Source of the DNA: an uncultured Bacteroidota bacterium
Lineage (GTDB): Bacteria; Bacteroidota; Bacteroidia; Bacteroidales; GCA-2748055
Assembly: GCA_963783435.1 (NCBI GenBank)
Contig: CAWANQ010000002.1
Span: 329,044 to 393,043 of the forward strand
Direction: 5' to 3'
Length of the DNA: 64,000 bases
Shown: piece by piece, positions 19,649 to 46,008 of the stretch
Layout: each line of letters begins with the position of its first letter
Numbering within the stretch: the first letter of the stretch is position 1
Translations under genes and position numbers: made by a program
Notes under the pieces: model-generated
What the model was told of the DNA's origin: nothing
What the model saw: only the letters and a program-made list of their open reading frames with translations
The model's database searches: none

Positions 19649-19677
19649 TTGAGACTAGATACTTGTGAATGGTCACA
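19649..19677 (-). promoter_or_regulatory. Predicted ECF-sigma-type promoter, site a (TGTGACCATT-N11-AGTCTCAA)
   Basis: The reverse complement of 19649-19677 is TGTGACCATTCACAAGTATCTAGTCTCAA. The -10-like box ends 17 nt before the ATG at 19631. Confidence 0.65.
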
Positions 19678-19754
19678 TGCAGACTTCAGCAGACTCTTTA
19701 TCGTGATACAGAACGATATCGTATATTTATACCAACAATCAACAAAAATGGGCT

Positions 19755-20762
19755 TTGGAAAATTCAAAAACGCTTATCTCAGAGGACTTCCTTGATTCTT
19801 TAATGAAAAATGCACCTCTTGGAATCATATCTGTCAATGAAACAGGCATGATTTCCAAAGTGAATCGATTGGCTAAAGTTTTACTTCAGGTAAATCCAAT
19901 AAATAAAAAGCTAATTGGGCAGAGCTTATTGGATTGTGTCCTCCATATCCCATTGCTTCATGAGAAGCTTAGCCGATTTCTCGAAAATAACAGGAAATCA
20001 TTTAATACTGAATTAATCAATATAAATGACAGATACATTACTGTCAAGGGGGTCAGTATTAAGAGTGGATTCATATGTATTATTAATGATGTTACCAGGC
20101 TGAAGGAGATGGAGACTGGGTCTATCCAATCCATCATTGCTGGTCAGGAAAATGAGCGAAGGAGGATAGGCCGGGAAATACATGATGGCATAGGACCTTT
20201 ACTCTCATATTCCAAGCTTGAGTTAGATGCATTCCTGGACGAATACGTGGAACAGAATAAGGATATACCTGACGAGAAGCTGATGAATATTCGCAGTACA
20301 CTTGACACCATCACAAATGATCTTCGCAACCTCTCTCACCATTTGGTACCCCGACTCCTGGAAGAATTCGGATTATTTTCTGCATTTAATAGCCTGACCA
20401 CAAGGTTGAATAATTCAATGAAATCGAAGGTCGAATTCTACTGCAATTTTAATTCCCAGACAAGGTTTGATAAGGACCTGGAGCTTAATCTTTATCGCTG
20501 CGGACAAGAACTTGTGAATAACACAGTGAAACATGCCAAGGCATCAGAAATATTGGTTCAGGTCATTAAACATGAACATAGCATTGTACTTATGGTGGAG
20601 GATGATGGAGTTGGATTTGAACAGAATGCAAAAAATATGGATAATTATGGAATCGGATTAACAAATATCCAAACCAGGGTAAGGACATTAAACGGAGAGT
20701 TTATCATTGAATCACTTGAAAATAGGGGAACGACCGCAAGCATAGAGATTCCGCTTAAATAG
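19755..20762 (+). CDS. PAS sensor histidine kinase, NarL-partner type (HisKA_3 + HATPase)
   Basis: 335-aa ORF. The track start is TTG, and the true start may lie at a downstream Met. There is a PAS-like N-terminus, an H-box (QENERRRIGREIHDGIGPLL) and an ATPase region (VEDDGVGF...GIGLTNIQTRV). Confidence 0.85.
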   Translation: MENSKTLISEDFLDSLMKNAPLGIISVNETGMISKVNRLAKVLLQVNPINKKLIGQSLLDCVLHIPLLHEKLSRFLENNRKSFNTELININDRYITVKGVSIKSGFICIINDVTRLKEMETGSIQSIIAGQENERRRIGREIHDGIGPLLSYSKLELDAFLDEYVEQNKDIPDEKLMNIRSTLDTITNDLRNLSHHLVPRLLEEFGLFSAFNSLTTRLNNSMKSKVEFYCNFNSQTRFDKDLELNLYRCGQELVNNTVKHAKASEILVQVIKHEHSIVLMVEDDGVGFEQNAKNMDNYGIGLTNIQTRVRTLNGEFIIESLENRGTTASIEIPLK

Positions 20763-20781
20763 GGTTGAAAATACAGATATC

Positions 20782-21435
20782 ATGGATAAAATACGGGTGT
20801 TATTAGCTGATGATCATAAAATTTTCAGGGATGGAGTTAGATCAATTTTGGAAAAAGAGAGGGATATGTTGGTGGTGGATGATGCTGCCAATGGAATTGA
20901 GGTATTAGAAAAAATTGAGAAGCTGGAGGTAGATGTGCTTGTGCTTGATATCGATATTGGTAAGCCGAATGGCATTGAGATCACCGAGATGGTCAGTAGA
21001 AATCATCCGGAAGTAAAAATCCTGATTTTGTCCATGATGGGTTTACATGACTTTGTTATACAAGCGCTTGAAAAGGGAGCCATTGGATTCTTACTGAAGA
21101 ATACCGGCAAGGATGAGGTTCTGACTGCAATTCGCAGCGTCTCCAAAGGAGATAGCTATTTCAGTAGAGAAGTTTCAGCAGTTTTAATTGAGCAGTTGCA
21201 CAGACCCGCATCTTCCAGAAAAAAAAATGCAGATATCCCCATCTCACCCAGAGAAATTGAAGTGCTTAAACTAATAGCTCAAGAGTATTCAAATTCAGAG
21301 ATTGCCGAGAAACTTTTTATTAGCATCCGAACTGTGGATACCCATAGGAGAAACCTTCTTGAGAAACTGGGTGCTAAAAATACCGCTGGTTTGGTAAAAT
21401 TTGCCATCCAGAAGGGCCTGGTCGATGAGGCATAA
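20782..21435 (+). CDS. Response regulator, NarL/LuxR family
   Basis: 217-aa ORF. The receiver reads RVLLADDHKIFRDG...VLVLDIDIGKPNG. The LuxR HTH reads SPREIEVLKLIAQEYSNSEIAEKLFISIRTVDTHRRNLLEKLG. Confidence 0.92.
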   Translation: MDKIRVLLADDHKIFRDGVRSILEKERDMLVVDDAANGIEVLEKIEKLEVDVLVLDIDIGKPNGIEITEMVSRNHPEVKILILSMMGLHDFVIQALEKGAIGFLLKNTGKDEVLTAIRSVSKGDSYFSREVSAVLIEQLHRPASSRKKNADIPISPREIEVLKLIAQEYSNSEIAEKLFISIRTVDTHRRNLLEKLGAKNTAGLVKFAIQKGLVDEA

Positions 21436-21442
21436 AACTTCC

Positions 21443-21817
21443 TTAATGGTCATTGTAAAACCAATGAATTGCATCTTCATAATTTGTAAAGGTCTGCACA
21501 TCAACCCCCTTACTTTTGGAGCAAAGCTCCATGAAATACGCTTTCTCAAAATTCACACCCGGTAATGCAAGCAGCGCAATTTTATCTCTATGTGAATCCG
21601 GATCATTGATGAGTACATTTGCCAGAGAAAAAATTTCCGCGGTTGAAAGAACCCATTGAGTGCGTCGAAAATCCAGAAGTATATCATAATCAGCCGGAGG
21701 ATGCTTCACACCTGCTACTTCCCGGAGTCTCTTTTTGCTTTCCTCAAATTCAACGCTTCCATCATCAGCCACAGAGAGATAATCAATAGAGCGAATAATT
21801 CTAATTTTTATATCCAT
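21443..21817 (-). CDS. Hypothetical 124-aa protein
   Basis: Clean ORF 58 nt downstream of the epimerase gene on the same strand. I recognise no motif in it. Confidence 0.4.
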   Translation of the reverse strand: MDIKIRIIRSIDYLSVADDGSVEFEESKKRLREVAGVKHPPADYDILLDFRRTQWVLSTAEIFSLANVLINDPDSHRDKIALLALPGVNFEKAYFMELCSKSKGVDVQTFTNYEDAIHWFYNDH

Positions 21818-21875
21818 TTCAGCAAGTTATTACTCTTTTAAACCAATTAAAAATTTTACTGCTTCCTAGTTGTAA

Positions 21876-22940
21876 CTATAGCTTTATTTTTCCAAGTCCA
21901 GGATGGACAGAGGGGTAGAGTATCCCTTGCTCCAATCGGAATAAATCGGAGAAGGGGTCCTCCAGCAAATCCAGGTGACCATCTAAATCGGCGCATACAA
22001 TATTGGGTCGGCTGAGCGTAAAATGAAGTCCAGCCGAGATGCCCAGGGCGCATTCATCAATGCAACCCACCATTACTTCGACTCCGGCTGCTTTTGCTAC
22101 CGAATTGATGTGCTGAGATTCCAGTATTCCACCCACTTTCATAATCTTGATGTTGACCATGTCTATTAAATTGTTGCTCGTCAGGCGGAATGCATCTTTT
22201 AAGGTTTTGAGGCTTTCATCGGCCATAACCCGAATATCATTATTCTGGCTTACCTCTCCCAATCTTTCTTCCTTTTTTTGACTGGTGGGCTGTTCAAATA
22301 TTTCGATGTTTGCACTTTTTGTTTTGCTGATGAATTTGAAAGATTCTTCAGTGGTATACCCCTGATTGGCATCAAAACGAAGGAGAAAATCACCTCCAAG
22401 TTTTTCACGCAACTTCAGAATTTTTTCAATATCCTCAGATAAATTCAATCCCCCTTTCAATTTGAGAATTGAAAACCCTTTCTTCAGGAAGTTTTTTGCC
22501 GTTTCAAGGGTTTCGTCAAGGGGTAAAATCCCAATGGTAATGCTTGTGGGTATTTCATTTCGGTAAGCTCCCAGTAACTGGTAGAGGGGAATTTTGGCTT
22601 TTCGGGCCAGGAGATCATGTAATGCCATGTCGACCATGGCCAGGGTAGATGAAGCACCTGGCAACAACTGTTTGATCAGATCCGTAAACTTGGCGGTTTG
22701 AAATGGAGATTGTTCTTTTAGGAGACTTATGACTACGTTCTCAATATTGCGAATCACCTCTTCGGGAGTCTCACCTGTAACCTCTTTGTCAGGAGCGGCA
22801 CAGCCCCATCCAGTGAGTCCTGTCCCGGTATCCAGCTTCAGTATAATATTTGATGTATGACTTACCGTTTCATAAGCAATGGTATAAGGAATAGCCAGGG
22901 GCATATCCAGCCTGAAATACTCTATGGCCTTTATTTTCAT
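21876..22940 (-). CDS. Enolase-superfamily dipeptide (L-Ala-D/L-Glu-type) or N-acyl-amino-acid epimerase/racemase
   Basis: The start is reassigned to MKIKAIEYFRLDMPL at 22940, whereas the track extends to 22997. The layout is that of the mandelate racemase / muconate lactonising enzyme family (LKLKGG, RFDANQGY, EQP, MADES, KIMKVGG). Confidence 0.8.
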   Translation of the reverse strand: MKIKAIEYFRLDMPLAIPYTIAYETVSHTSNIILKLDTGTGLTGWGCAAPDKEVTGETPEEVIRNIENVVISLLKEQSPFQTAKFTDLIKQLLPGASSTLAMVDMALHDLLARKAKIPLYQLLGAYRNEIPTSITIGILPLDETLETAKNFLKKGFSILKLKGGLNLSEDIEKILKLREKLGGDFLLRFDANQGYTTEESFKFISKTKSANIEIFEQPTSQKKEERLGEVSQNNDIRVMADESLKTLKDAFRLTSNNLIDMVNIKIMKVGGILESQHINSVAKAAGVEVMVGCIDECALGISAGLHFTLSRPNIVCADLDGHLDLLEDPFSDLFRLEQGILYPSVHPGLGKIKL

Positions 22941-22941
22941 T

Positions 22942-23763
22942 CTAATACCTGTTTTGAAAAAGTTTATCAGATGGAGTGTTTTTGATGGTCTCCACAAAAT
23001 CGGCCATTTTTCGGATCATAATTTCCCACATCTTATGCCCCTTCTCGGCACTGGCTAAAGTTGCATTCCCCATCACTCCCGATTTCGTCAATGTTTTTGT
23101 ATGCACATACCAACTCACCCCACGTTCAGAGGTGAAATCCAGGTATTCATTATCCAGGTCAAGGGTGTCATCTACGGCCTTGTCCATATCTACCAGTTCA
23201 GGTCTTATGGCCAGGCTTGTGCTTGTTTCAATTTCTCCTGCATGGATGTCATTGCGGGTCTCGATCAAACCATACAAATCCACGTCACTGGTTTCACCGG
23301 TTTCTACACAAACGAATATTTTGGCATCACGGTTGATCATCTGGGCTGCATAATTCAGGGTTGGAGCATTATCGCCGTGGCCATTTAGGATGACCAGTTT
23401 CTTGATGCCATTTTGTGCAAGACTCATGCCGATATCGTATATAAGAGCCGACAAGGCATTGTTGGTCACACAGATTGTTCCTTTAAACTGACTGTGGTGA
23501 TAGGAGACACCGTAAGGGAGAGGTGGCAATACAAATGGTTTGGGATCCTGACAGGCTTCAGCTACTTTACGGGCCATATAGTCTGCATCAAAATAATCCA
23601 CATCCAGAGGCAGGTGCGGACCATGCTGTTCTATGGCTCCACAGGGCAGAATGGCCGTATCCACAATTTTCAATCGCTCTGTAATTTCAGGCCACTTAAG
23701 CGTGGCCCACATGTATTCAGGATACTCAACTTTGTCTTTCATCCCATCTATATTTTGCTTCAT
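22942..23763 (-). CDS. Creatininase-family amidohydrolase
   Basis: 273-aa ORF. It has the pattern typical of the creatinine amidohydrolase / MftE / ArfB family: ILPCGAIEQHGPHLPLDVD...VILNGHGDN...HAGEIETS. Confidence 0.8.
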   Translation of the reverse strand: MKQNIDGMKDKVEYPEYMWATLKWPEITERLKIVDTAILPCGAIEQHGPHLPLDVDYFDADYMARKVAEACQDPKPFVLPPLPYGVSYHHSQFKGTICVTNNALSALIYDIGMSLAQNGIKKLVILNGHGDNAPTLNYAAQMINRDAKIFVCVETGETSDVDLYGLIETRNDIHAGEIETSTSLAIRPELVDMDKAVDDTLDLDNEYLDFTSERGVSWYVHTKTLTKSGVMGNATLASAEKGHKMWEIMIRKMADFVETIKNTPSDKLFQNRY

Positions 23764-25243
23764 TTAAAAATTCTTCATCCACTTTTACGTCGATCCAACG
23801 CTTGTTCTCTCTCTTTACAGCTCCATCAGCATATTGAGAAAGGATATTAAACAAAGGTTTGCGAATATACTTAGGCAAATCCTCCAGATTACTCCTTTCT
23901 TTATCGAAGCGGAGTTTGGTAATTTCTGCATGTTCCCTGGCGATCTTTTCAGTGAGTCCATTTCGTTGAATCAGATTTTTCCTCAGCATCAGGTAATATA
24001 GATGTGAGGCGTCGCTTCCGATCTGTTTTACCGAATGTGATTCAAGTGCTTTTAATCCCTGCGCAATCTGGACCTCACTGTACCCACATCTTTCAGGATT
24101 CTCATCAAGGGCTTTTAGCATCCCGACGATCCTTCGACACTTCTCACACTTTCCACATGGATACATTCTTCCATTTACTTCATGGGCTGCATGACATGAA
24201 ACCTGGTGCTTTTGAAGATCGGGATAGCGCTTAATAAGAACTTTCATAATAAGCAGTTCCGACATACTCCGAAGAATGGAGAACTGATTGATTCTCCACC
24301 CCTTGTTCCTGTAATACCGGGTCATGGCGTTGTCGAAATATTTACTCTGATCGTAAAGGCCATTGTAGTGTGTGATGCCCTGCAAGTTGCTTGTTAGGGT
24401 GGTATCGTATTCATCCCCTATAAGGATATTTCCGATCCCCTTTTTACGGGCCACGGGAAGCACACCAAACAAAAATACCGCCACAGTCCAGAGCCTAATC
24501 GGATAGATATCAGATCTGATAGAGGCGAAATTTTCTTTGATAAAAGGCAATTGCTTAAGCATCCAGTTGAACAGTCGGTCGCTGTTGCACCATGGCTTCC
24601 TGGTATTTGGTTCGTTTTCATGGAAGAACCTGTGCGCATTGACGGCAGTAAACCAATGCCTTCCCGCTTCGTTGATGAAAATCGGGTAAGGCTCCCCGAA
24701 CTCTTTAACCAATCCATAAGTCAACAGGCTATCCTTTCCTCCACTGCTCAGAATGGCATATTTGGCCGGATCCGTTTCATCGATTTCACGGCCCAGTTTC
24801 ATTTGCTGGTATTGGGTGTTGAGAAAGTGGATCTGAGCCTGGGTGTAGCGGTCTTTTTTTTCCGGCTTCAACTCATCAAAAGGAGGCTTCAGAAATTCAT
24901 TTTTAACCAGGAGCTTGTTGGTTAAAATTTCCCGTGATGTGTTTTCCATCATATCTTTAATGAACTTCTGATCGCTCAGGTCAAAGAGTCCATCGAATTC
25001 AATTATTTCAAAAAAGAGCCCATAATTCAGGGCTGCCTGAGCCAGCATCATGGAGGCCAGATTTACATCGGCCGGCCGCAAACGATCAAAATACGGCTGC
25101 TCATAGGAGTAGATCAATTCAAAGGAGCTTACTTCACCGGCAAATCCTTCTACCTGATAAAGCGCTTTCACCTTTTTTGGCTCAATATGAATATTCTTTA
25201 TGGTAAGCTTCCTTAGTACTTTGAATGAATCCAGCGTAATCAT
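23726..25243 (-). CDS. PP-loop ATP pyrophosphatase (QueC/asparagine-synthetase-like adenylating enzyme) with unknown N-terminal domain
   Basis: 505-aa ORF. It has a PP-loop (AILSSGGKDS) and a QueC-like C-terminal Cys cluster (VSCHAAH...YPCGKCEKCRR). The first ~160 aa are unassigned. Confidence 0.6.
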   Translation of the reverse strand: MITLDSFKVLRKLTIKNIHIEPKKVKALYQVEGFAGEVSSFELIYSYEQPYFDRLRPADVNLASMMLAQAALNYGLFFEIIEFDGLFDLSDQKFIKDMMENTSREILTNKLLVKNEFLKPPFDELKPEKKDRYTQAQIHFLNTQYQQMKLGREIDETDPAKYAILSSGGKDSLLTYGLVKEFGEPYPIFINEAGRHWFTAVNAHRFFHENEPNTRKPWCNSDRLFNWMLKQLPFIKENFASIRSDIYPIRLWTVAVFLFGVLPVARKKGIGNILIGDEYDTTLTSNLQGITHYNGLYDQSKYFDNAMTRYYRNKGWRINQFSILRSMSELLIMKVLIKRYPDLQKHQVSCHAAHEVNGRMYPCGKCEKCRRIVGMLKALDENPERCGYSEVQIAQGLKALESHSVKQIGSDASHLYYLMLRKNLIQRNGLTEKIAREHAEITKLRFDKERSNLEDLPKYIRKPLFNILSQYADGAVKRENKRWIDVKVDEEFLNEAKYRWDERQS

Positions 25244-26310
25244 TTCAAATAAGATTTCAATACTCCCACGAGATCATCAGCTCCAAAAAGTAATACATCA
25301 AATGCTGGAAGTCCGGTCTCCAGGGTAATATCTTTACAAGCAGGTAATACCTCTTCTTCTGTCATCTCTTCATGATTCACCGTGATGGCAATGACCTTTT
25401 TACCGGAAATGGTTTCAATGGCATGAATCTGCTCTTTGAGCGAATGTAAGGGGTAGCCCGGGAATCCATCGTATTCTTTTCTTTTAGGAGCATGCTGAAG
25501 AACCACATAATCGGGCCTTCCGGCAGCCAGGATCTCAAACCCTCCGGGATAAGCAGGATTCATCAAACTACCCTGACCTTCGATAACAATGAGATCTGGC
25601 GATTCATTCTTCCATGCTTCATGTACGGCATGTTCGATCTCACCGGAGACAAAATCATTGATGCAGCTATCCATGATCATGGAATATTTTGCCCCCTGCA
25701 TCCAGGCAGTTTGTCCGGTGCCTGCTATTTCGGCTTTTAAGCCTGCCTTCCTGAATGCGTGAACAATAATCCAGGCGCTTGTTCTTTTACCGATGGCCGA
25801 ATCGGTTCCCAGGAGGGCAATTTTCAAACAGTCGACCTCCTCAATTTTGCCGGAAAAAAAATGCAGCTCATGGCGGTCAGGCGTTCTGCGAACATCCCTC
25901 ACCCTGCAGTTGAATCTTTTTGCAATGGCCATCAGCTTGGCATCCTTGTATAAAAAATCATGAAGACCACTGTCTACATTCATTCCCAGCTCCAGTGCTG
26001 CCATGATCGTCTTTTTGCCTTCAGCCGGAAGACGGCCCCCATCGGTCGCAAGACCAACAACCAGGGTAGTGGGCTTGTTTTCAGAGCCGAGCCTTTCCAG
26101 GGCTTCCTCCAGGTTCTTAAAAATGGGAATGTTTAACATTTTACTGTCCAGCACCATCCCTGCATCCCGACCTGCATATTTTTGATCGATCACCCCCACA
26201 ACTTCGTACCTTTCGGTAAACCTCACTAAGCCGTGAGCTGTTTTCCCATATGGCGTATTAAATGCCCCATCGGCATACACCAGAGCCTTGCCATCAATAG
26301 TTTGTTTCAT
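25240..26310 (-). CDS. DUF1611-family protein (DgcN-like; P-loop-containing)
   Basis: 356-aa ORF. It carries the family hallmarks: DGAFNTPYGKTAHGLVRF, GLATDGGRLP, LLGTDSAIGKRTS, TGQTAWMQG and IEGQGSLMNPAYPG. Confidence 0.72.
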   Translation of the reverse strand: MKQTIDGKALVYADGAFNTPYGKTAHGLVRFTERYEVVGVIDQKYAGRDAGMVLDSKMLNIPIFKNLEEALERLGSENKPTTLVVGLATDGGRLPAEGKKTIMAALELGMNVDSGLHDFLYKDAKLMAIAKRFNCRVRDVRRTPDRHELHFFSGKIEEVDCLKIALLGTDSAIGKRTSAWIIVHAFRKAGLKAEIAGTGQTAWMQGAKYSMIMDSCINDFVSGEIEHAVHEAWKNESPDLIVIEGQGSLMNPAYPGGFEILAAGRPDYVVLQHAPKRKEYDGFPGYPLHSLKEQIHAIETISGKKVIAITVNHEEMTEEEVLPACKDITLETGLPAFDVLLFGADDLVGVLKSYLK

Positions 26311-26334
26311 TCAATAAAAAATTGATACCTGTTT

Positions 26335-27431: not shown

Positions 27432-27460
27432 TTTAGACCTTTATAAACAAAATAGTCACT
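27432..27460 (-). promoter_or_regulatory. Predicted ECF-sigma-type promoter, site g (AGTGACTATT-N11-GGTCTAAA)
   Basis: The reverse complement of 27432-27460 is AGTGACTATTTTGTTTATAAAGGTCTAAA. It starts 3 nt after the sigma-gene stop and ends 35 nt before the ATG at 27396. Confidence 0.6.
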
Positions 27461-28054: not shown

Positions 28055-28208
28055 TTTTATTTGAAATAAATGTATTGAGAGTCTGGGCCTTACACCAGAG
28101 TGAATAAGCGTAATTTTATTCTGAAGTTTTCCATGATTAGCAGGTAATTCCGGGAGAATCCCACCCTAGGTATTTCACCTATGCTTCTTTACATCCATGC
28201 ACTTTTTT

Positions 28209-28237: not shown

Positions 28238-28277
28238 TATCAAACGATTGAAATTCTGATTTCAAAAACCAATCTTT

Positions 28278-30274: not shown

Positions 30275-30283
30275 CAGCAGGGC

Positions 30284-38970: not shown

Positions 38971-39030
38971 TTTTGCGATTTAAGCTATAGTCAATAATTA
39001 GTAAATTGCAGGAACCTAAAGAAATATTAT

Positions 39031-39885
39031 ATGGAGAATTTTTTTGACAACCCTACGGTGAAGTATTCCTTTATCATAGTCGGGACATTGCTTGTTGCAT
39101 TAGTAATCTCTAAAATCCTTAGAATCATTATAAGCAGGTTTATCAAACTTTCTTCCAATAAGCTTAAAGTCGACCATACCCAGTTTAATTTCCTGAAGAA
39201 TGCAGTTACTTTCTTTGTGTTTCTAGGTGCGATAATCTTCATATTCTATACCATTCCAAAGTTAAAAACCCTCAGTTTAACCCTATTTGCCGGGGCAGGA
39301 ATCCTGACGGCCGTTGCCCTTTTTGCCTCTCAACAGGCATTTTCCAATATTGTGAGCGGGGTTTTCATTGTCATTTTTAAACCTTTCAGGGTCAATGACC
39401 TTGTGGATGTGGGAAATTTGCCCAAAGGCAGGGTTGAGGATATTACACTTCGACATACCGTTATCCGAAGTTTTGAAAACCGCAGGATGATTATTCCTAA
39501 TTCGGTGATAAGTTCTGAGATTCTGGTTAACTCGAGCATTGTGGATGAAACAATCTGCAATTTTATTGATATGGGAATAAGTTACGACTCGGATATCGAT
39601 AAGGCCATGCAGATTATGCACGATGAGGGAGTTGCGCACCCAAATTTTATTGATCACAGGTCAGAAGAGGAAATTAAAGAGGGCGTTTTACCAGTCACCA
39701 CCCGGGTGATGGGCTTTGGTGATTCGTCGGTCAACCTGCGGGCTTTTATTTGGTCAAAGGACCACAGCTCAGGATATGTAATGAAAACGGATCTCCATAA
39801 ATCCATCAAAGAACAGTTTGATAAGCAGGGTATAGAGATTCCCTTCCCGTATCGCACTATTGTTTATAAGGACAAAGAGAGATAG
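39031..39885 (+). CDS. Mechanosensitive channel, MscS family
   Basis: 284-aa ORF. The signature reads AGILTAVALFASQQAFSNIVSGVFIVIFKPFRVNDLVDV...GRVEDITLRHTVIRSFENRR. Confidence 0.87.
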   Translation: MENFFDNPTVKYSFIIVGTLLVALVISKILRIIISRFIKLSSNKLKVDHTQFNFLKNAVTFFVFLGAIIFIFYTIPKLKTLSLTLFAGAGILTAVALFASQQAFSNIVSGVFIVIFKPFRVNDLVDVGNLPKGRVEDITLRHTVIRSFENRRMIIPNSVISSEILVNSSIVDETICNFIDMGISYDSDIDKAMQIMHDEGVAHPNFIDHRSEEEIKEGVLPVTTRVMGFGDSSVNLRAFIWSKDHSSGYVMKTDLHKSIKEQFDKQGIEIPFPYRTIVYKDKER

Positions 39886-39969: not shown

Positions 39970-39998
39970 TGTGACCTTTTCTCTGGAAATAGTCTTAA
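39970..39998 (+). promoter_or_regulatory. Predicted ECF-sigma-type promoter, site c (TGTGACCTTT-N11-AGTCTTAA)
   Basis: The sequence is TGTGACCTTTTCTCTGGAAATAGTCTTAA. The ATG at 40005 follows after 6 nt, and the next in-frame ATG is at 40014. Confidence 0.62.
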
Positions 39999-40004
39999 TA
40001 ACAT

Positions 40005-40832
40005 ATGAGCGATATGAATTCAACACCAGTAATTGAAGAATTAACAAGGATATTATCAGTCATTTGGGACTTCCTTTTGGGCATCGTCCCAAAACTCATC
40101 CTGGGACTTTTTGTTCTCCTGATAGGGTACATCATTGCACGAATTGTCCAATCCATAGTTACCCGAACTATTGGATATTTGAACAGGACCATAAATAGCA
40201 GACTGAAATCCCAGCTTCTACAGGTAAACCTGGACAGTTCAAAAACTTACATAGGGAAAACCTTCTATTGGATTATTATTATAATTTTTGTTTCTCTATT
40301 TACCGAGATACTTGGTCTTCCAGTAATTACCTTGTGGCTCAAAGGTTTAAGCGAATATCTGCCTAACATTCTGGCTGCTGTAATAATCATTTTCTCAGGA
40401 ATTATATTTGGCAGATTGGTATCTGACCTGGTAAGAAACGGAGCATTAAAAGCGGGTATATCCAATAGCAATACACTGAGTAAATTAACCCGCTATGTGA
40501 TCATGATCATTGCCATTATTATTGCCATTGATCAGATCGGATTTGATATTACATTCCTTACACAACTTATCTATATTCTGCTTGCCACGTTTCTCATAGG
40601 AGCTGCTCTGGCTTTTGGTATAGGCGCCAAAACATCAGTGAGTAATATACTGGCTGCCTACTATGTGAATAGAAGCTTCAAGGAGGGAGACATCATCAGG
40701 ATGGGAAAACATGAAGGAAAAATTATAAAACTTAGCTCCACTTCAATTACCCTTAAAACAGAATTAGGGGAGGTAAACATCCCAGCCAAAGAATTTCATG
40801 AAAAGCAATCTATTCTAATCGACAAAGGCTAA
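40005..40832 (+). CDS. MscS-related membrane protein ('conserved TM helix' repeats + short MscS beta-domain)
   Basis: 275-aa ORF with several TM helices. The C-terminus (FKEGDIIRMGKHEGKIIKLSSTSITLKTELGEVNIP) resembles the MscS beta-domain. Confidence 0.6.
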   Translation: MSDMNSTPVIEELTRILSVIWDFLLGIVPKLILGLFVLLIGYIIARIVQSIVTRTIGYLNRTINSRLKSQLLQVNLDSSKTYIGKTFYWIIIIIFVSLFTEILGLPVITLWLKGLSEYLPNILAAVIIIFSGIIFGRLVSDLVRNGALKAGISNSNTLSKLTRYVIMIIAIIIAIDQIGFDITFLTQLIYILLATFLIGAALAFGIGAKTSVSNILAAYYVNRSFKEGDIIRMGKHEGKIIKLSSTSITLKTELGEVNIPAKEFHEKQSILIDKG

Positions 40833-40834
40833 AT

Positions 40835-41668
40835 ATGGATAGCGACTCAATCATTATTGAACAATTTATATTGAAGTATAGCAAGGAAGCATCAAAGGCT
40901 CTGGAAAAATTTGAACCTGACGAATTGCTGCCTTTCTTTGAGAATAGTTCAGTGGCTGTAGTGTTGGCATTGGTTCAAGAGATGAATCCTCAGATAGTGC
41001 TTCAGGTATTTAAATTAATGAAAGTAGATAAATCTGTACGGCTTTTTGAGGCCATGAAAATACCCCAGGCGGAGCTGTTCATAAGAATGATGCCTGTTTC
41101 TGAGGCAGAACAAGTACTTAGCAGCTTATCTCCGCAAAAGTCACTCCACATAAGACGATTGCTTAAATATCTAAAAACATCTGTGGGCTCATATGTGGAT
41201 CAAACTGTCTTTACCCTCAATGAAAACCTGATCGTAAAAGAGGCTTTGGCTCAGGCTAAAAGACATAATTCCATCCTTGAACCTGAGCTGTTCGTTTTAA
41301 GCCCAGAGAGACAATTAGTAGGAGTAATAAAACTATCCAAACTGATTACTGAATTGCCAAAAAAAGAGATCAGGTCTATCATGGAAACCAACTTAGACAC
41401 AATTGCTCCAGAAACACCAATTCAGTCTGTATTAAATCACCCTGGGTGGCAAGATCGGTATTTAATGCCTGTTGTTGACACATCGAAAGTATTCCTGGGG
41501 GTCATCAATTTAGCAACAGTGCGTAAAATCAAGATCAAATCCGACAAAATTTTGAAAGATCATAGTAAGGATGCCATTGGTGCCCTTGGTGATCTGTACC
41601 ATATTGGAATAGCCGGCCTTTTAAGAGTTGCAACAGACTTAAAATCTGATACATATAATGGAGAATAG
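40835..41668 (+). CDS. Stand-alone MgtE-like cytosolic module (MgtE N-domain + CBS pair, no channel domain)
   Basis: 277-aa ORF. It has helical MgtE_N-like repeats and then a CBS-like pair (VKEALAQAKRH...LVGVIKLSKL; IQSVLNH...FLGVINLATV). It overlaps the mgtE start by 11 nt. Confidence 0.6.
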   Translation: MDSDSIIIEQFILKYSKEASKALEKFEPDELLPFFENSSVAVVLALVQEMNPQIVLQVFKLMKVDKSVRLFEAMKIPQAELFIRMMPVSEAEQVLSSLSPQKSLHIRRLLKYLKTSVGSYVDQTVFTLNENLIVKEALAQAKRHNSILEPELFVLSPERQLVGVIKLSKLITELPKKEIRSIMETNLDTIAPETPIQSVLNHPGWQDRYLMPVVDTSKVFLGVINLATVRKIKIKSDKILKDHSKDAIGALGDLYHIGIAGLLRVATDLKSDTYNGE

Positions 41669-42989
41669 TAAGGAAATTATAATCGAAGATCAAGTCCAGA
41701 AGCACTTATTGGAGGCCTATTTTAATAAATTCCCTCTGGATGCTGCGAATACTCTTTCTTCACTCAACATGGAGAAAGCCATTGAATATTTAAAGGGCCA
41801 ATCCCCTAAAACCGCAGGTCCGATTCTTTCAAGGATGATTCCTGACAAAGCAGCAGTCATATTGGAAAGCCTGGATTCTGATGATTTTAAACAACTCGTT
41901 GAGGCTCTCGATGTTTTTTTATCCGCTCGACTTATCGCGCGTTTCAATCCTAAGAATATAAAACATCGTTTGGAAATCTTATCCCCTGGAAAATCCAAGC
42001 AAATTAAAGAGCTGATTACATTTCCACCCGAATGTGCAGCTTTTATAATGGATCCCCAGGTGACATCCTTCAAGCATCACACCACGGCTAAAGAGGCCTT
42101 AAAGAGGATCCGTAGCCTTAAAGACCGTACCATCTATCAGGTTTGTTTGGTAGATGACGAAGGACATCTCACCAGCATTGTACCCTTACAAAATATTGCC
42201 GTATCTGAGCCAGATGAATCGCTGATAAACCTGGTTGATGGGCCCCAGGTAAGTATTAGTGCGTTATCACCACGTGAAGAGGTGATTAAAGTCATTGAAG
42301 AGAGTAAACTTATCAACTTGCCCGTTGTAGATACAAACAATTTCTTACTGGGAATGATTCGAAAAGACTCGATCATGAATGCAACCAAACTGGATGCTAC
42401 TCAAGATTTACAAGCCATGTTTGGTGCAGGTCGTGAAGAGAGAGCCCTTTCAAAGGTTTCACTGGCAGTTCGGAAACGTTTGCCCTGGCTTCAAATTAAC
42501 CTGGCTACGGCATTCCTTGCTGCATCGGTAGTGGCCATTTTTGAAGACACAATATCCAGAATCACTGTCCTGGCCGTCTTTCTGCCTGTGGTGGCCGGAC
42601 AATCTGGTAATACAGGTTCTCAGGCTTTGGCTGTAACCATGAGGGGACTGGCATTAAGAGAAATTGGCATCAGCTCCTGGTTCCGTGTGGCCAGAAAAGA
42701 GCTCACAGTTGGATTAATAAATGGAGTGGCAGTGGCATTAACCACCTCAGTGATCGTTTTTTTCTGGGCATCTTCTTTTGGGCTGGCTGTGGTGATTGGA
42801 ATTTCTATGATACTATCCATGACTATTGCAGGTTTCTCAGGAGCTATCATTCCCATGGTTTTGCAATCACTAGGTCAGGATCCGGCTTCTTCTTCATCCA
42901 TTATACTCACTACGGTAACAGATATTGTGGGCTTTCTAAGCTTCCTGGGCTTAGCTACTGCATTGGCAACCGTCCTGGGGATCGCCTAA
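41658..42989 (+). CDS. mgtE: Magnesium transporter MgtE
   Basis: 443-aa ORF with an N-domain, a CBS pair and a 5-TM channel domain. The signature is PVVAGQSGNTGSQALAVTMRGLALREI. Confidence 0.9.
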   Translation: MENSKEIIIEDQVQKHLLEAYFNKFPLDAANTLSSLNMEKAIEYLKGQSPKTAGPILSRMIPDKAAVILESLDSDDFKQLVEALDVFLSARLIARFNPKNIKHRLEILSPGKSKQIKELITFPPECAAFIMDPQVTSFKHHTTAKEALKRIRSLKDRTIYQVCLVDDEGHLTSIVPLQNIAVSEPDESLINLVDGPQVSISALSPREEVIKVIEESKLINLPVVDTNNFLLGMIRKDSIMNATKLDATQDLQAMFGAGREERALSKVSLAVRKRLPWLQINLATAFLAASVVAIFEDTISRITVLAVFLPVVAGQSGNTGSQALAVTMRGLALREIGISSWFRVARKELTVGLINGVAVALTTSVIVFFWASSFGLAVVIGISMILSMTIAGFSGAIIPMVLQSLGQDPASSSSIILTTVTDIVGFLSFLGLATALATVLGIA

Positions 42990-43068
42990 AAAAGATCTAA
43001 TTTCGTTGAAATTCTATACCAATATGAATTGTGGTAGCGTATCTTTACATGTGCTTAATTGAATTATT

Positions 43069-44163
43069 ATGTTTGAAGAACTGGCCAACGAAATCATAAA
43101 CCAATACAATGATGGCCGCTGGCAAAGTGCGGTTATTATCAGCATTCTGATACTTGCAGGAAGTCTTGTTATACATTTCATATCGTTTAAAATCTTAAAA
43201 CGCCTCGGTAATAAATCTGATAAACCCTTCTTAAAACTACTTTGGAATAAATTAAGAAAACCTAGCCTGGGTCTTATTCTAACTATAGCCATGGGTGTTA
43301 TTCTATTTGCATTTGCTCCCGAGAATGAGTTTGTCGAGATAATTATGCATCTCATAAAACTTTTCATCATTTTCTTCATTACCTGGGTAATTATCCGGCT
43401 GGTTAGGGTAAGTAGAGAAACTGTATTGGATCGATATGATATTGGGGAAAAAGACAACCTGAAAGCAAGAAGGGTCTATACCCAGTTTAAAATCATTGAG
43501 CGGATATTGGTTTTCATAGTGATTGTGATTGCGATTGCAGTTGCACTCTTGACCTTTGAACAGATAAGGAGAATAGGAGTGAGCCTTTTTGCATCTGCAG
43601 GTGTGGCTGGCATCATTCTGGGTTTTGCCGCACAAAAAATGATCGGAAATGTCTTGGCCGGATTCCAGATTGCTATTGCCCAACCTATCCGAATCGAGGA
43701 TGTGGTCATTGTGGAAAAGGAGTGGGGCTGGATCGAGGAAATTACCCTTACCTATGTGGTTGTCAGGATCTGGGATAAACGGCGGTTGATTTTACCCACG
43801 ACTTACTTCATAGAACAACCTTTTCAGAACTGGACCCGTGTTTCAGCCGATATACTTGGGACCGTATTTCTCTACACAGATTACACAGTCCCTATCGACA
43901 AATTGAGGGAGGAACTTACCAGAGTACTAAAATCGGATAAGAATTGGGATGGAAAAGTAAATGTGCTTCAGGTGACAGATTCAACTGAAAAAACAATGGA
44001 GATCAGGGCCCTGATGAGTTCGGCCGATTCGCCTTCTGCCTGGGATCTGAGGGTAAAGGTTCGGGAGAAACTAATCGATTTTCTGCAAAAAAATTACCCG
44101 GAATCCTTGCCAAAGTCAAGGCTTGATATTGCGCCAAACATAGATAAGCCAGATGTTGGTTAG
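43069..44163 (+). CDS. Mechanosensitive channel, MscS family (larger paralog)
   Basis: 364-aa ORF. The signature reads GVAGIILGFAAQKMIGNVLAGFQIAIAQPIRIEDVVIVEKEWGWIEEITLTYVVVRIWDKRR. Confidence 0.87.
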   Translation: MFEELANEIINQYNDGRWQSAVIISILILAGSLVIHFISFKILKRLGNKSDKPFLKLLWNKLRKPSLGLILTIAMGVILFAFAPENEFVEIIMHLIKLFIIFFITWVIIRLVRVSRETVLDRYDIGEKDNLKARRVYTQFKIIERILVFIVIVIAIAVALLTFEQIRRIGVSLFASAGVAGIILGFAAQKMIGNVLAGFQIAIAQPIRIEDVVIVEKEWGWIEEITLTYVVVRIWDKRRLILPTTYFIEQPFQNWTRVSADILGTVFLYTDYTVPIDKLREELTRVLKSDKNWDGKVNVLQVTDSTEKTMEIRALMSSADSPSAWDLRVKVREKLIDFLQKNYPESLPKSRLDIAPNIDKPDVG

Positions 44164-44178
44164 TTAGGCCAGGATCCC

Positions 44179-44919
44179 CTAGTTATTTTCTACGCTGTAG
44201 ATTTTTGAGTCTGGTTCCAATCTTTCTGAGGTCAGTCCCTTTTGATCGTAAGGAATGCTATTCAGAACATAACGCATGGCTTCTTTCCTGGCTTCATCTT
44301 TATTGTTTCCCTGCATGATAACCCAGGGCGATTTTAGGGTTCCTGTCCGTTTAAACATTTCCATCTTATAATGCGTGAAATCGTTCCATTTCATTTGAGC
44401 CTGCATATCCACCGTGCTGAGTTTCCAACTGATAAGAGGGTTGGTTTTCCTCTCCTCTAATCGTTTGTTTTGTTCATCCTTATGAATAGAGAACCAGAAT
44501 TTTATAATCTGGCAGCCGTCATCAATCAACATATCCTCAAGCTGGGTTACTTGATTCATAAATAAATTGTATTGATCCTTGTTGCAGAATCCCATAACTG
44601 GCTCTACAACTGCCCGGTTGTACCAGCTTCTGTCAAAGAAAACAATTTCACCAGGTTTTGGAAGATGAGAAATATACCTTTGAAAATACCATTGCCCGTT
44701 CTCAATATCGGTTGGTTTTCCAAGTGCAATAACCCGGTAAAAGCGGGGATTAATGTATCTGATAAATCGCATGATTGCCCCACCTTTCCCGGCACTGTCC
44801 CGTCCCTCAAATATGATTATTAAACGCTTTCTATTTTCAATAATCCATTTTTGCATCCGTACCATTTCAATCTGCAGATTGATGTATTCCGGATCGTTTT
44901 CTAAAGAGTGTAATCGCAT
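44179..44919 (-). CDS. ppk2: Polyphosphate kinase 2 family protein
   Basis: 246-aa ORF. It has the PPK2 Walker A context (IIFEGRDSAGKGGAI) and FDRSWYNRAVVEPV. Confidence 0.85.
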   Translation of the reverse strand: MRLHSLENDPEYINLQIEMVRMQKWIIENRKRLIIIFEGRDSAGKGGAIMRFIRYINPRFYRVIALGKPTDIENGQWYFQRYISHLPKPGEIVFFDRSWYNRAVVEPVMGFCNKDQYNLFMNQVTQLEDMLIDDGCQIIKFWFSIHKDEQNKRLEERKTNPLISWKLSTVDMQAQMKWNDFTHYKMEMFKRTGTLKSPWVIMQGNNKDEARKEAMRYVLNSIPYDQKGLTSERLEPDSKIYSVENN

Positions 44920-45100
44920 CTTGAATTTTGACTTTGTTAATCGTATTTAAATTGTACAATTTCACCGAATTCGTTCAGGCGGACGATATAGCTTAACTTC
45001 ATATTAGTTACCTGCAAACGATAAATAAACCCAGGAATACCAATGGCCTCTATCCTTTCTTTATGATCAGACCAAATCCATTCCCCGAATTCTGAATCCC

Positions 45101-45961
45101 TTAGATCCTCTTCTCCCGCATAACCAAGACCGGGACTTTAGACTTCAATGAAATCTCATTGCTTAAGCTTTCATGAAATATTGAATCGAGAAAATAGTGT
45201 TGCTGTTTTACAACAACTAGTAAATCAGCATTGCACTGTTCAACATATTGATTTACAGATTCAATAATTCTTTTGCCATGCAAGCTTTTAAATTCATGTC
45301 GCTTATTTTTTTCGATGGCTTGCATCACCATTCGATACGTATTTGATTGAGTCCATTCCTCCGCCTTTTCCTTCGATGAAATATGAATGAAATGAATGTT
45401 AGAATCGAACAACTTTGCATAGTTTGTTACATCGTGTAAGTATTGTTGGTAATTATTCAACTTTTTCAAATCTGTAGCGAACACGATATTTTTGACCGGC
45501 CTGTATTCAAAGCCAAATGGCACAACCAGTAGTGACGTCCTGTTTTTTTCAAATACATTGTCCCTAATAATTTTCACCTGCCTTCTATTGAATTCTCTGT
45601 TGTCAGATATGGGCAAAACAATTAAATCAACATCATCTTCCTGAGCGATATTTCTAATCTCATCAATAAATACACCATTCACAAACCGGTAATCGAATTT
45701 AATCTTCAAATCCGTATCCGTTATTGCATGTTTCTCAAGAAAATATTGATTGAACTTGCTGATGGCATTATATGCTTCAAACCAATTGATCTTCTTTAAG
45801 TTTTCATATTTCTCCTGGGTAATATCATTGCCAACTTCCACCCTAAAAGCATTGAGAATAATCAGCTCGGCATTAATAATTCTGGCGAACTTAATTCCAA
45901 AAATGTAACCCTCTCTGTAGACAGGATTCTCAAGCTCGAAAGGAAATAAAATCTTTCTCAT
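45101..45961 (-). CDS. Tandem universal stress protein (UspA family)
   Basis: 286-aa ORF with two Usp-like halves (KILFPFELENP...; NIVFATDLKK...VPVLVM). Confidence 0.7.
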   Translation of the reverse strand: MRKILFPFELENPVYREGYIFGIKFARIINAELIILNAFRVEVGNDITQEKYENLKKINWFEAYNAISKFNQYFLEKHAITDTDLKIKFDYRFVNGVFIDEIRNIAQEDDVDLIVLPISDNREFNRRQVKIIRDNVFEKNRTSLLVVPFGFEYRPVKNIVFATDLKKLNNYQQYLHDVTNYAKLFDSNIHFIHISSKEKAEEWTQSNTYRMVMQAIEKNKRHEFKSLHGKRIIESVNQYVEQCNADLLVVVKQQHYFLDSIFHESLSNEISLKSKVPVLVMREKRI

Positions 45962-45978
45962 GACACCACCTTTATTCT

Positions 45979-46008
45979 TTTAGACACCGTATCTATGAAA
46001 TGGTCACT
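45979..46008 (-). promoter_or_regulatory. Predicted ECF-sigma-type promoter, site b (AGTGACCATT-N12-TGTCTAAA)
   Basis: The reverse complement of 45979-46008 is AGTGACCATTTCATAGATACGGTGTCTAAA. It ends 17 nt before the ATG at 45961. Confidence 0.55.

Follow-up and report, generated by a model that had tools for sequence, protein, structure and literature searches.

The 64-kb window analyzed here, i.e. the whole stretch of DNA from an uncultured Bacteroidales bacterium, contains several intergenic copies of one two-box element, which raises the question of what recognizes this element and which genes it places under common control. Seven copies of wGTGACyWWT-N11/12-nGTCnnAA are present, where none is expected by chance. 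This bipartite element is asymmetric, and 16 nt separate its GAC from its GTC. The exact pattern GTGACYWWT-N11/12-GTCTNAA was matched six times in a pattern search (19649-19676, 27432-27459 and 34038-34065 on the minus strand; 28210-28237, 34151-34178 and 39971-39998 on the plus strand) and not once in 100 dinucleotide-preserving shuffles. When both strands (2 x 64 kb) were scanned with a two-box weight matrix, the seven sites scored 24.4 to 29.9 bits, and the runner-up, at 12.9 bits, fell inside the range of shuffled sequences, leaving a gap of more than 11 bits. These figures confirm the claim of an earlier note on this DNA that seven oriented copies cannot be due to chance. Each of the seven sites occupies an intergenic region flanked by Pfam-supported genes and is oriented towards the adjacent gene. 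The hexamer GTGACC by itself is not enriched in the window (19 observed vs. 19.6 expected), and therefore the signal resides in both boxes jointly, as had been proposed. The coordinates given previously were right for six sites, whereas site e, at 34066-34038, had been placed one base off.

The genes downstream of these sites, whose earlier annotation was borne out by Pfam and NCBIfam, encode stress proteins, ion channels, Mg2+ transporters, polyamine enzymes and enzymes of unknown product. Predicted promoter a (19649..19677, minus strand; TGTGACCATT-N11-AGTCTCAA; 27.7 bits) is located 17 nt 5' of the ATG (19631) of USP1, a tandem-domain universal stress protein (18726..19631, minus strand; Pfam Usp), and its predicted +1 is the A at 19643; seven of 8 genomes have the orthologous site at 17 nt from the ATG, the other at 15 nt. 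Promoter b (45979..46008, minus strand; AGTGACCATT-N12-TGTCTAAA) likewise lies 17 nt from an ATG (45961), that of USP2 (45101-45961), which is followed by PPK2 (44179-44919) within the target region 44179..45961 on the minus strand; the gap between these two genes measures 181 nt, so that co-transcription of PPK2 is uncertain. The 12-nt spacer of this site and its distance of 17-18 nt are kept in seven genomes, including the window. Promoter g (27432..27460, minus strand; AGTGACTATT-N11-GGTCTAAA) begins 3 nt past the stop codon of a sigma factor gene and 35 nt 5' of the ATG (27396) of a PALP enzyme, the first gene of an operon (21443..27396, minus strand) that also encodes a DUF1611 (DgcN-like) protein, a 505-aa protein without family and members of the creatininase family and enolase superfamily. 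The order of these genes is conserved in eight relatives, and the counterpart of the promoter in L003 is found 34 nt from its ATG. A 124-aa protein possibly also belongs to this operon.

Promoter e (34038..34066, minus strand; TGTGACCATT-N11-AGTCTAAA; 29.9 bits) is placed 5 nt 5' of the ATG of an FGase-like gene, which is frameshifted in the present assembly and is followed in the same operon (29243..34032, minus strand) by genes for a MATCAP/QEGLA protein, a GshB-like ATP-grasp enzyme and CNNM. Its spacing of 5 nt recurs in seven relatives and is 4 nt in L006; the gene order is conserved in eight, and in L008 the families are reordered, with FGase and MATCAP fused. Promoter f (34150..34178, plus strand; TGTGACCAAT-N11-GGTCTGAA) precedes by 23 nt the ATG (34202) of a GNAT-CN_hydrolase gene in an operon (34202..39885, plus strand) that continues with an Orn/Arg decarboxylase, an agmatinase-family enzyme and a deoxyhypusine-synthase-like protein; in L008, the orthologous gene is preceded by a site at 25 nt, as measured to the aligned N-terminus. 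Promoter c (39970..39998, plus strand; TGTGACCTTT-N11-AGTCTTAA) is found 6 nt 5' of the ATG (40005) of an MscS-like gene, which forms an operon (40005..44163, plus strand) with genes for an MgtE_N-CBS protein and MgtE; five relatives have an orthologous site, and L011 has one of lower score (11.3 bits). The previous suggestion that these operons form one regulon is supported by the present data, but two MscS genes require a reservation: those at 39031-39885 and 43069-44163 may belong to the operons of promoters f and c, respectively, yet possess housekeeping-type boxes of their own (TAGTTTTG and TATCTTTA).

A further reservation concerns promoter d (28209..28237, plus strand; TGTGACCTTT-N11-AGTCTCAA), which diverges from the sigma gene and whose box 2 is separated by 163 nt from the start codon of an MscS-family channel (28401..29240, plus strand; Pfam). 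The site does precede this gene in the position and orientation reported earlier, but a conserved GC-rich hairpin followed by a T-run (28276..28368, plus strand) lies in between. With a folding energy of -33 kcal/mol and a stem base (GCCCGGTA/TACCGGGC) that is invariant in six genomes, it resembles a terminator or attenuator; it was not listed by a simple terminator scan because its long interior exceeds the loop of 3-8 nt by which that scan defines a hairpin. Read-through of the hairpin would thus be required for promoter d to control the MscS gene at 28401-29240. Counterparts of promoter d were found in seven relatives, about 160-250 nt upstream of the sigma gene on the opposite strand, and the gene that it drives in relatives is missing in the window.

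Orthologues of the sigma factor were identified in 13 other uncultured Bacteroidales genomes, at 50-81% identity, and the motif occurs nearby in all 13, most of which also share neighboring gene families with the window. In the 20 kb around each orthologue, compared for 14 genomes including the window, 67 sites scoring 15 bits or more were detected in 342 kb of sigma-linked DNA, as against a single one in the same DNA reversed, so that the expected enrichment and orientation of the motif extend to the relatives. The boxes are conserved at orthologous intergenic positions, whereas the spacers diverge. The sigma orthologue is located inside the motif cluster in 14 of 14 genomes, despite rearranged surrounding genes, and none of these genomes has the motif without the sigma factor or vice versa, a co-occurrence comparison that is thus made without a negative case. 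The putative assignment of the motif to this particular sigma factor is made by co-occurrence only.

The spacer measures 11 nt in 60 and 12 nt in 7 of the 67 sites; among 61 non-redundant sites, the G-T-G-A-C core, the G-T-C core and the first A of the AA pair are each kept in 60-61, the second A in 55, and an A is present exactly 6 nt past box 2 in 53. This conserved A is likely to be the transcription start. Distances from box 2 to the ATG show sharp maxima at 5 and 17 nt; for a given gene family they are conserved from genome to genome, in contrast to the diverging spacer sequence. For the FGase-like genes, the A of the ATG is the conserved A in most genomes carrying the gene; in the window, where the ATG lies 5 nt past box 2, its A (34032) is the predicted +1, so that the mRNA is predicted to be leaderless. 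The distance of 6 nt at promoter c similarly predicts a leaderless or nearly leaderless mRNA for the MscS-like/MgtE operon, and both USP genes would have a 5' leader of about 11 nt. Box 1 (wGTGACC) would serve as the -35 element and box 2 (nGTCnnAA) as the -10 element. The sigmaE promoter of E. coli is GGAACTT-N16-TCAAA, and GTC is the usual -10 core of promoters recognized by extracytoplasmic function (ECF) sigma factors. The 16 nt between GAC and GTC, the invariant GTC core and the A 6 nt further on fit such a promoter, although most ECF -35 elements contain AAC at the place of the GAC in box 1. The motif is unlike promoters of the Bacteroidota housekeeping type, whose -7 box has the consensus TAnnTTTG (PMC7366714); when the window was scanned, no TAnnTTT[GA] lay 120 nt or less from any of the seven start codons, in agreement with the earlier note.

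The candidate cognate sigma factor is encoded by the gene at 27464..28039 (minus strand; 191 aa; Pfam Sigma70_r2 and r4_2). The mechanical ORF extends to 28054, but most homologues have 191 aa. The protein scores 85 bits against the sigma70-ECF model TIGR02937 (NCBIfam; cutoff 42.9), and the nearest solved structures are those of SigW (5wuq) and sigmaE (1or7); a second sigma gene was not found in the 64-kb window. Upstream of the sigma gene itself, the best motif scores remain below 5 bits in 10 genomes, so that it would not be autoregulated through the motif; most ECF sigma factors autoregulate (PMC7826278). A housekeeping-type -7 box, TACATTTA (28067..28074, minus strand), is situated 35 nt 5' of its ATG, and TAnnTTTA is common to all nine aligned sigma upstream regions. 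An anti-sigma gene is not recognizable adjoining the sigma gene in either the window or the loci of the relatives.

A link also emerges to a two-component system (19755..21435, plus strand; Pfam and NCBIfam) consisting of a cytoplasmic PAS-HisKA_3 histidine kinase (19755-20762) and a NarL/GerE-type response regulator (20782-21435). In the other genomes, the sigma orthologue is accompanied, at a distance of at most a few kb, by a homologous regulator gene and, except in L003 and L079, by a kinase gene; in the DNA fetched around the sigma gene of L003, neither was present. Judged by this linkage, kinase and regulator are part of the conserved module. A TAnnTTT[GA] box is found at -35 for the sigma gene and at -33 for the kinase gene. 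The palindrome TAGGT-N5-ACCTA (28167..28181), upstream of the sigma gene, occurs once per locus, in exact form in the window and 7 other loci and in degenerate form (TAGGTAAATTACCGA) in L011. Its distance to the sigma core promoter is fixed in 8-9 genomes and that to promoter d is variable, which makes it a candidate operator of the sigma gene.

We consider it probable that the seven elements are promoters for RNA polymerase carrying an ECF-type sigma factor, most likely that encoded at 27464-28039, amid the block of target genes. The two boxes could instead serve a sigma factor encoded elsewhere, the adjacent one being a mere regulon member or an unrelated neighbor. An average Bacteroidota genome contains about 22 ECF sigma factors (PMC7826278), the window covers only 64 kb of a 754-kb contig, the adjacent sigma gene has no motif upstream, and L008 has another sigma gene 9 kb away. 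This explanation is nevertheless unlikely: no motif lies closer than 5 kb to the second sigma gene of L008, which the other loci do not share, the motif directly follows the sigma stop codon in five genomes, L008, L077 and L080 among them, and the sigma orthologue stays within the cluster throughout the rearrangements.

It appears very improbable that the motif is an operator at which a transcription factor such as the linked NarL-type regulator works with the housekeeping sigma factor. Regulator and kinase do track the motif as tightly as the sigma factor, GAC...GTC is a minimal inverted repeat, an additional inverted TGTGACC box adjoins site c, and the box 1 copies of sites e and f are inverted relative to each other. 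However, GerE-type regulators usually bind palindromes or repeats, whereas the two boxes are dissimilar, asymmetric and strictly oriented towards the gene; start codons follow box 2 at a constant 5-6 or 17 nt and the conserved A follows it at 6 nt, so that a separate -7 box would find no space, and the seven sites indeed lack one. Moreover, a different conserved palindrome upstream of the sigma gene is available to the regulator. As for chance copies, by-products of coding sequence or remnants of small mobile repeats without regulatory role, the strict pattern gave mostly unrelated matches when scanned metagenome-wide, including a recurring class of 16 loci on the antisense strand of sequence encoding LDFFxxKGH, which we take to be the N-terminus of alanyl-tRNA synthetase; the strict pattern can thus have other origins. 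For the seven intergenic copies, such an origin is hardly credible. Their flanks and spacers share no similarity when compared with each other, so that they are not a repeat, and the boxes keep orthologous positions although the sigma factors are only 50-80% identical. The shuffles, the score gap, the fixed start-codon distances and the reversed-DNA control effectively refute this possibility.

The ECF-type promoter proposed earlier is therefore supported by geometry, conservation and co-occurrence in at least 14 genomes. In the likely cascade, the two-component system would act on the sigma gene and the sigma factor on its regulon. The sigma gene would be transcribed from its housekeeping-type promoter and not from the motif, which, together with the lack of an adjoining anti-sigma gene, suggests that the sigma level is set transcriptionally, by the linked kinase and regulator and probably via the palindrome. 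Gene content would suggest, as a guess, that the inducing signal is ionic or osmotic stress. The promoters are predicted to join about 25 genes in one regulon, and those that would be jointly activated comprise two USPs, MscS-family channels, the Mg2+ transporters MgtE and CNNM, the polyamine pathway and two enzyme operons of unknown product. As an ECF sigma regulon, this locus represents a new example of an already known kind of control.

A bipartite motif, consisting of box 1 (wGTGACC), a spacer of 11 or 12 nt, and box 2 (nGTCnnAA), had been proposed in an earlier note to occur seven times as an ECF-type promoter and to unite the adjoining genes in one regulon. All seven copies are present; their coordinates were correct for six, and site e, upstream of the FGase-like operon, was corrected by one base to 34066-34038. 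The pattern GTGACYWWT-N11/12-GTCTNAA has 6 exact matches in the window and 0 in 100 shuffled sequences, and the seventh site, which has a 12-nt spacer, is located at 46008-45979. When both strands of the window were scored with a two-box weight matrix, the seven sites obtained 24.4 to 29.9 bits, and the runner-up position on either strand reached 12.9 bits, a value inside the range of shuffled sequences. Given this clean gap, the window contains exactly seven sites, all of them at 19.6-46.0 kb. The GTGACC hexamer by itself is not enriched (19 observed versus 19.6 expected), which bears out the view that the two boxes together carry the signal. The seven sites are all intergenic and each is aimed at the adjoining gene, as had been noticed, with box 2 being separated from the start codon by 17 nt at site a (USP1), 35 nt at site g (PALP operon), 163 nt at site d (divergent from the sigma gene), 5 nt at site e, 23 nt at site f (polyamine operon), 6 nt at site c (MscS-like/MgtE operon), and 17 nt at site b (USP2).

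The pooled set of 16 loci, totaling 342 kb, was found to contain 67 sites at a cut-off of at least 15 bits, versus 1 in the control of the same sequences reversed. The spacer is 11 nt long in 60 of these 67 sites and 12 nt in the remaining 7, and the GAC to GTC distance in the motif is 16 nt. Among the 61 sites of the non-redundant set, G-T-G-A-C and G-T-C are each kept in 60 to 61; of the AA that follows GTC, the first A is present in all 61 and the second in 55, and an A is found 6 nt past box 2 in 53. The AAC core of ECF -35 elements is altered, since a G replaces its first A in 61 of the 61 sites.

The two boxes are unlike each other, and their orientation toward the gene is strict. GTC is the usual core of ECF -10 elements. 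Housekeeping promoters of Bacteroidota carry TTTG at -33 and TAnnTTTG at -7 (PMC7366714), and no TAnnTTT[GA] box was detected in the 120 nt that precede each of the seven first genes, in agreement with the earlier note; in addition, box 2 lies so near the start codons that there is no space for a separate core promoter. A reading of the motif as structured RNA was rejected: complementarity was looked for between the spacers and none was found, the two boxes form no hairpin, and an Rfam search of the whole window at the gathering threshold returned zero matches. The ECF-type promoter reading is supported by every computational test available. From the asymmetric boxes, the strict orientation, the missing -7 box, the 16-nt GAC-GTC distance, the GTC core, and a sigma factor resembling SigW and sigmaE, we conclude that the seven elements are predicted promoters for an ECF-type sigma factor, and GTGAC in place of GGAAC or TGAAC in the -35 element is a group-specific variant. 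The conserved A located 6 nt past box 2 is read as the predicted transcription start; in the FGase-like genes it is the A of the ATG. With a start at this position, the mRNA of the FGase-like operon would be leaderless and the USP leaders would be about 11 nt long. Of the 5' UTRs of B. thetaiotaomicron, only about 3.7% have a length below 10 nt (PMC7366714).

The gene annotations put forward earlier were confirmed with Pfam and NCBIfam. The block begins with USP1 (18726-19631, minus strand), followed by the PAS-HisKA_3 kinase and the NarL/GerE regulator (19755-21435, plus), and by an operon for a PALP enzyme, a DUF1611 protein, a 505-aa family-less protein, a creatininase-family protein, and an enolase-superfamily protein (21876-27396, minus). 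The ECF sigma gene (27464-28039, minus) and an MscS channel gene (28401-29240) precede the operon for FGase-like, MATCAP/QEGLA, GshB-like, and CNNM proteins (29243-34032, minus) and that for a GNAT-CN_hydrolase, an Orn/Arg decarboxylase, agmatinase-family and deoxyhypusine-synthase-like proteins, and MscS (34202-39885). Further downstream are MscS-like, MgtE_N-CBS, MgtE, and MscS genes (40005-44163), as well as PPK2 and USP2 (44179-45961, minus), which are separated from each other by 181 nt. TAnnTTT[GA] boxes of their own were found upstream of MscS 39031 and MscS 43069. A 13-nt inverted repeat, AAATGGTCACATA / TATGTGACCTTTT, at 39937-39949 and 39968-39980 gives rise to a second TGTGACCATT box, located on the minus strand 20 nt upstream of its counterpart at site c; this second box is without a GTC partner and is possibly a -35 box that has been orphaned or has decayed.

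The 505-aa protein (23726-25243, minus) belongs to no Pfam or NCBIfam family. In several relatives it is fused to a creatininase-family domain (L013 15479-17800, L079 18650-20576, and L080 7947-10076), giving products of 709 to 774 aa, and these fusions suggest that the two proteins probably work together in one pathway with the PALP, DUF1611, and enolase-superfamily enzymes. The FGase-like gene (33236-34032, minus) is frameshifted in the window and intact in relatives. A hybrid two-component gene (57141-60922, plus) is broken into three ORFs, a gene near 11-13 kb (11019-12893, plus) also appears split, and the same style of fragmentation was seen in the L001 and L013 genomes; the split genes of the window are probably long-read assembly indel errors and not real pseudogenes. 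The remainder of the window encodes polysaccharide-utilisation-type genes, hybrid two-component regulators, and, at its edge, a group II intron reverse transcriptase/maturase (RVT_1 + GIIM; 62973-63998, minus). The polysaccharide-utilisation-type region at 2794-15424 comprises a sulfatase, an alginate lyase, a 1358-aa hybrid two-component regulator, a 3-keto-disaccharide hydrolase, and a BNR/sortilin protein with a type IX secretion tail, and it contains no motif sites.

A one-genome-per-species scan with the sigma protein resulted in six orthologues of 70-81% identity, all in uncultured Bacteroidales MAGs (L001-L006), and a protein search gave many further homologues, of which seven with 50-67% identity had their contigs taken (L008-L013, L077-L080). 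The motif is present at every one of the sigma-orthologue loci in these 13 other genomes. The genes recurring around the sigma gene encode USPs, MscS-type proteins, MgtE, CNNM, CorA, Na/H and Na/Ca exchangers, and polyamine enzymes, and the FGase/MATCAP/GshB and PALP/DUF1611/creatininase/enolase operons recur there as well. Twelve of the 13 encode a NarL-type regulator homologue at most a few kb away from the sigma gene, usually convergent on it, and a PAS-HisKA_3 kinase gene accompanies the regulator gene in all 12 of these genomes but L079; the DNA fetched for L003 contains neither gene. Promoter geometry is also maintained. At USP1, the gap between the end of box 2 and the ATG measures 17 nt in seven genomes, with one further genome at 15 nt; at USP2, the seven genomes compared all share the 12-nt spacer and a distance of 17-18 nt to the ATG. 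In the window, L001, L002, L003, L004, L005, L020, and L037, the FGase-like coding sequence begins with its ATG 5 nt past box 2; in L006 this distance is 4 nt. Alignment of orthologous upstream regions showed that the boxes are kept and that spacers and flanks vary freely.

Promoter d deserves separate consideration. In relatives, the promoter divergent from the sigma gene drives a gene for an MS_channel_1st_1 protein of about 225 aa. This gene (MKEQVQ...) was observed behind the divergent promoter in L002-L006, and a homologue in L011 follows a comparable site at another position. From the window the gene is cleanly missing (28238-28275 compared with L003 9811-9054), so that promoter d there adjoins a conserved hairpin followed by a T-run (28276 to about 28368-28382, plus strand; -33 kcal/mol). 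The hairpin lies inside the 5' leader behind promoter d, between this promoter and the ATG of MscS 28401-29240, directly upstream of the latter, which would therefore be a target of promoter d only given read-through. The base of its stem, GCCCGGTA/TACCGGGC (TTGCCCGGTAG ... TACCGGGCA), is invariant among the window and L002-L006, with an interior of 30 to 75 nt; the corresponding hairpins are all on the minus strand (L002 9088-9021, L003 9053-8992, L004 9047-8981, L005 9046-8940, and L006 9248-9184). The hairpin has no Rfam match; it may serve as terminator or attenuator, or function as a regulatory RNA. The scan for sigma-70-type promoters and simple terminators is uninformative for Bacteroidota and misses this long composite structure.

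A metagenome-wide scan with TGTGACCWTT-N11-RGTCTAAA returned 63 loci, among which the true relatives are limited to L018, L020, L033, and L037, each carrying two sites amid the same gene families. The biggest recurring class of matches consists of loci from unrelated low-GC bacteria in which the pattern is antisense to conserved N-terminal codons for LDFFxxKGH (L021, L025, L029-L031, L035, L036, L039, L042, L053, L054, L061, L065, L066, L073, and L076), which we take to be the N-terminus of alanyl-tRNA synthetase. The strict pattern is thus significant in the intergenic DNA of the clade and not specific elsewhere, and since most matches are unrelated, the pattern alone is unsafe for blind genome mining. 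A literature search by gene content yielded nothing relevant to the motif.

The sigma protein contains Pfam Sigma70_r2 (residues 34-101) and Sigma70_r4_2 (135-186) and scores 85.2 bits with the TIGR02937 ECF superfamily model (cutoff 42.9); with only sigma-2 and sigma-4 regions in about 190 aa, it is an ECF (group 4) protein. Its closest solved structures are SigW (5wuq) and sigmaE (1or7, 6jbq). It remains far below the cutoffs of all NCBIfam equivalog models, including SigW, SigX, RpoE, and SigM: the best match is SigW (99 bits, cutoff 209), followed by SigX (94 bits, cutoff 194), and RpoE gives 71 bits (cutoff 236). The main text of PMC7826278 describes no Bacteroidota ECF group with a NarL-type two-component system. 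No other sigma genes were found in the window, and the sigma orthologue is located inside the motif cluster in 14 of 14 genomes despite shuffled gene order. In the window, L001-L006, and L008, the strand opposite to the sigma gene carries a motif copy at a distance of about 160-250 nt upstream of it, and in the window, L003, L008, L077, and L080 another copy starts within about 3-30 nt of the sigma stop codon. Among the genomes examined, no negative case for the co-occurrence of motif and sigma was found. This co-occurrence, which is not proof, points to the sigma encoded at 27464-28039 as the probable cognate of the motif.

How the sigma itself may be controlled was approached from its upstream region and its neighbors. 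Autoregulation via the motif was rejected, as a scan of the 140 nt preceding the sigma gene in 10 genomes gave nothing above 5 bits. The neighbors of the sigma, in the window and in relatives, show no anti-sigma Pfam domain, even at relaxed E-values. Next downstream of the sigma gene in the window and L003 is the PALP operon, preceded by promoter g. In L008 (10632-11243), L077 (10595-11251), and L080 (1854-2453), a family-less protein of about 200 aa is encoded right after the sigma, behind a motif copy; its N-terminus is weakly similar to that of USP2 in L008 (E=4e-4), and a faint Usp match was seen in L080. At the remaining loci, the genes for the sigma and the response regulator are convergent. 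A recognisable anti-sigma is thus absent near the sigma, and the protein of about 200 aa could conceivably be a novel one.

Several conserved blocks lie instead in the region upstream of the sigma gene. Read in minus-strand order, 28067-28200 comprises the palindrome TAGGTGAAATACCTA, GGAATTACCT, AAAATTACGCTT, CTCTGG, and the TACATTTA box, the conserved blocks also including AAAATACGCTT and GCTCTGG. The palindrome, TAGGT-N5-ACCTA (28167-28181), is exact in eight genomes, degenerate in L011, and not present in L008, and a conserved TAnnTTTA box is located at 28067-28074. In 8-9 genomes the mutual spacing of the blocks is fixed and their distance to promoter d is variable. A sigma-54 promoter (GG-N10-GC) did not fit these blocks on alignments checked by eye. 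The stretch 28067-28200 is probably an operator combined with a housekeeping-type promoter of the sigma gene; a housekeeping-type box is found upstream of both the kinase and the sigma gene. Pfam identified no membrane segments in the kinase, whose PAS, HisKA_3, and HATPase domains span most of its 335 aa. The simplest model, we infer, is a cascade from the two-component system to the sigma: a cytoplasmic signal would act on the kinase, the phosphorylated NarL-type regulator would activate the sigma promoter via the palindrome, and the sigma would then switch on the seven motif promoters. As a guess from gene content, the inducing signal might be ionic or osmotic stress.

Among the closest known systems, the E. 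coli sigmaE (RpoE) and P. aeruginosa AlgU promoters (GGAACTT-N16-TCAAA / TCTGA; the former being that of E. coli sigmaE) are likewise ECF promoters of two boxes whose cores lie about 16-17 nt apart, with a GTC plus A-rich -10 element and a start (predicted here) about 6 nt downstream, and the sigma proteins are homologous (1or7 E=2e-13, 6in7 E=4e-15). However, the -35 core here is GTGACC and not GGAAC, neither an adjacent RseA-like anti-sigma nor an autoregulatory promoter is found, and the predicted regulon consists of ion channels, Mg2+ transport, polyamines, and USPs instead of envelope-folding factors. The S. coelicolor sigmaE-CseB/CseC system (ECF39) also has an ECF sigma without a functioning anti-sigma that is tied to a kinase/regulator pair. 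CseB is an OmpR-type regulator and CseC a membrane sensor, whereas here the regulator is of the NarL/GerE type and the kinase is soluble with a PAS domain; furthermore, the two-component genes here are convergent with the sigma gene or separate from it and do not form one operon, the phylum is another, and control is inferred. ECF39 is listed as a group under direct transcriptional regulation by a two-component system (PMC7826278), and the logic proposed here matches this.

Another example is PorXY-SigP of P. gingivalis (ECF228), a Bacteroidota two-component system acting via an ECF sigma without a classical anti-sigma; unlike the system described here, PorX lacks a GerE DNA-binding domain and stabilises SigP by direct protein contact, the type IX secretion system constitutes the regulon, and the genes are not clustered with that of the sigma (PMC4800418, PMC7826278). 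Both sigmaE-CseBC and PorXY-SigP are precedents for the cascade model. In P. aeruginosa SigX-CmpX (ECF102), an ECF sigma implicated in mechanical/osmotic sensing is encoded beside a mechanosensitive-channel gene, but this group, from another phylum, has a putative anti-sigma, CfrX, and no linked two-component system (PMC7826278). The alphaproteobacterial EcfG (ECF15) resembles the present case as one ECF sigma with a broad stress regulon including USP-type proteins and a response regulator in control, but it operates by partner switching (NepR/PhyR) and not transcriptionally, recognizes GGAAC-N16/17-CGTT boxes, and forms no compact island. Finally, the Bacteroidota housekeeping promoter seems to drive the sigma and kinase genes here, and its conserved bases are unrelated to the motif.

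Taken together, the system is best filed as a well-defined new ECF sigma regulon of a kind already known, and it is somewhat unusual in that no anti-sigma was found, autoregulation is absent, a cytoplasmic two-component system is linked, and leaderless targets are predicted. It is tentatively proposed, as a possibility rather than an expectation, that the sigma, the cytoplasmic PAS kinase, and the NarL-type regulator act together as master switch for a general response to ionic/osmotic stress in a Bacteroidales clade of many genomes. The sigma would then be free of anti-sigma and autoregulation, would be controlled solely by a transcriptional cascade or by direct regulator-sigma contact, and would drive a compact island with leaderless mRNAs and two enzyme operons for unknown small molecules; it might also stand for an ECF group that is yet to be described.

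The general understanding of ECF sigma action is unchanged by this finding. Bacteroidota possess about 22 ECF sigmas per genome (PMC7826278), and very few of their promoter motifs are known; that of B. fragilis EcfO is one, and in 2020 none was available for any B. thetaiotaomicron ECF (PMC7366714). Here, the motif is sharply defined, its start site is predicted, the proposed cascade from the two-component system to the sigma is testable, and the sigma and its promoters may be an orthogonal pair of use as a genetic part for Bacteroidota. The predicted regulon comprises about 25 genes and is conserved in at least 14 genomes. The two uncharacterised enzyme operons, namely, FGase/MATCAP-QEGLA/GshB-like and PALP/DUF1611/505-aa/creatininase/enolase-superfamily, would gain a functional context from their predicted co-induction with the USPs, the polyamine pathway, MscS channels, and Mg2+ transporters.
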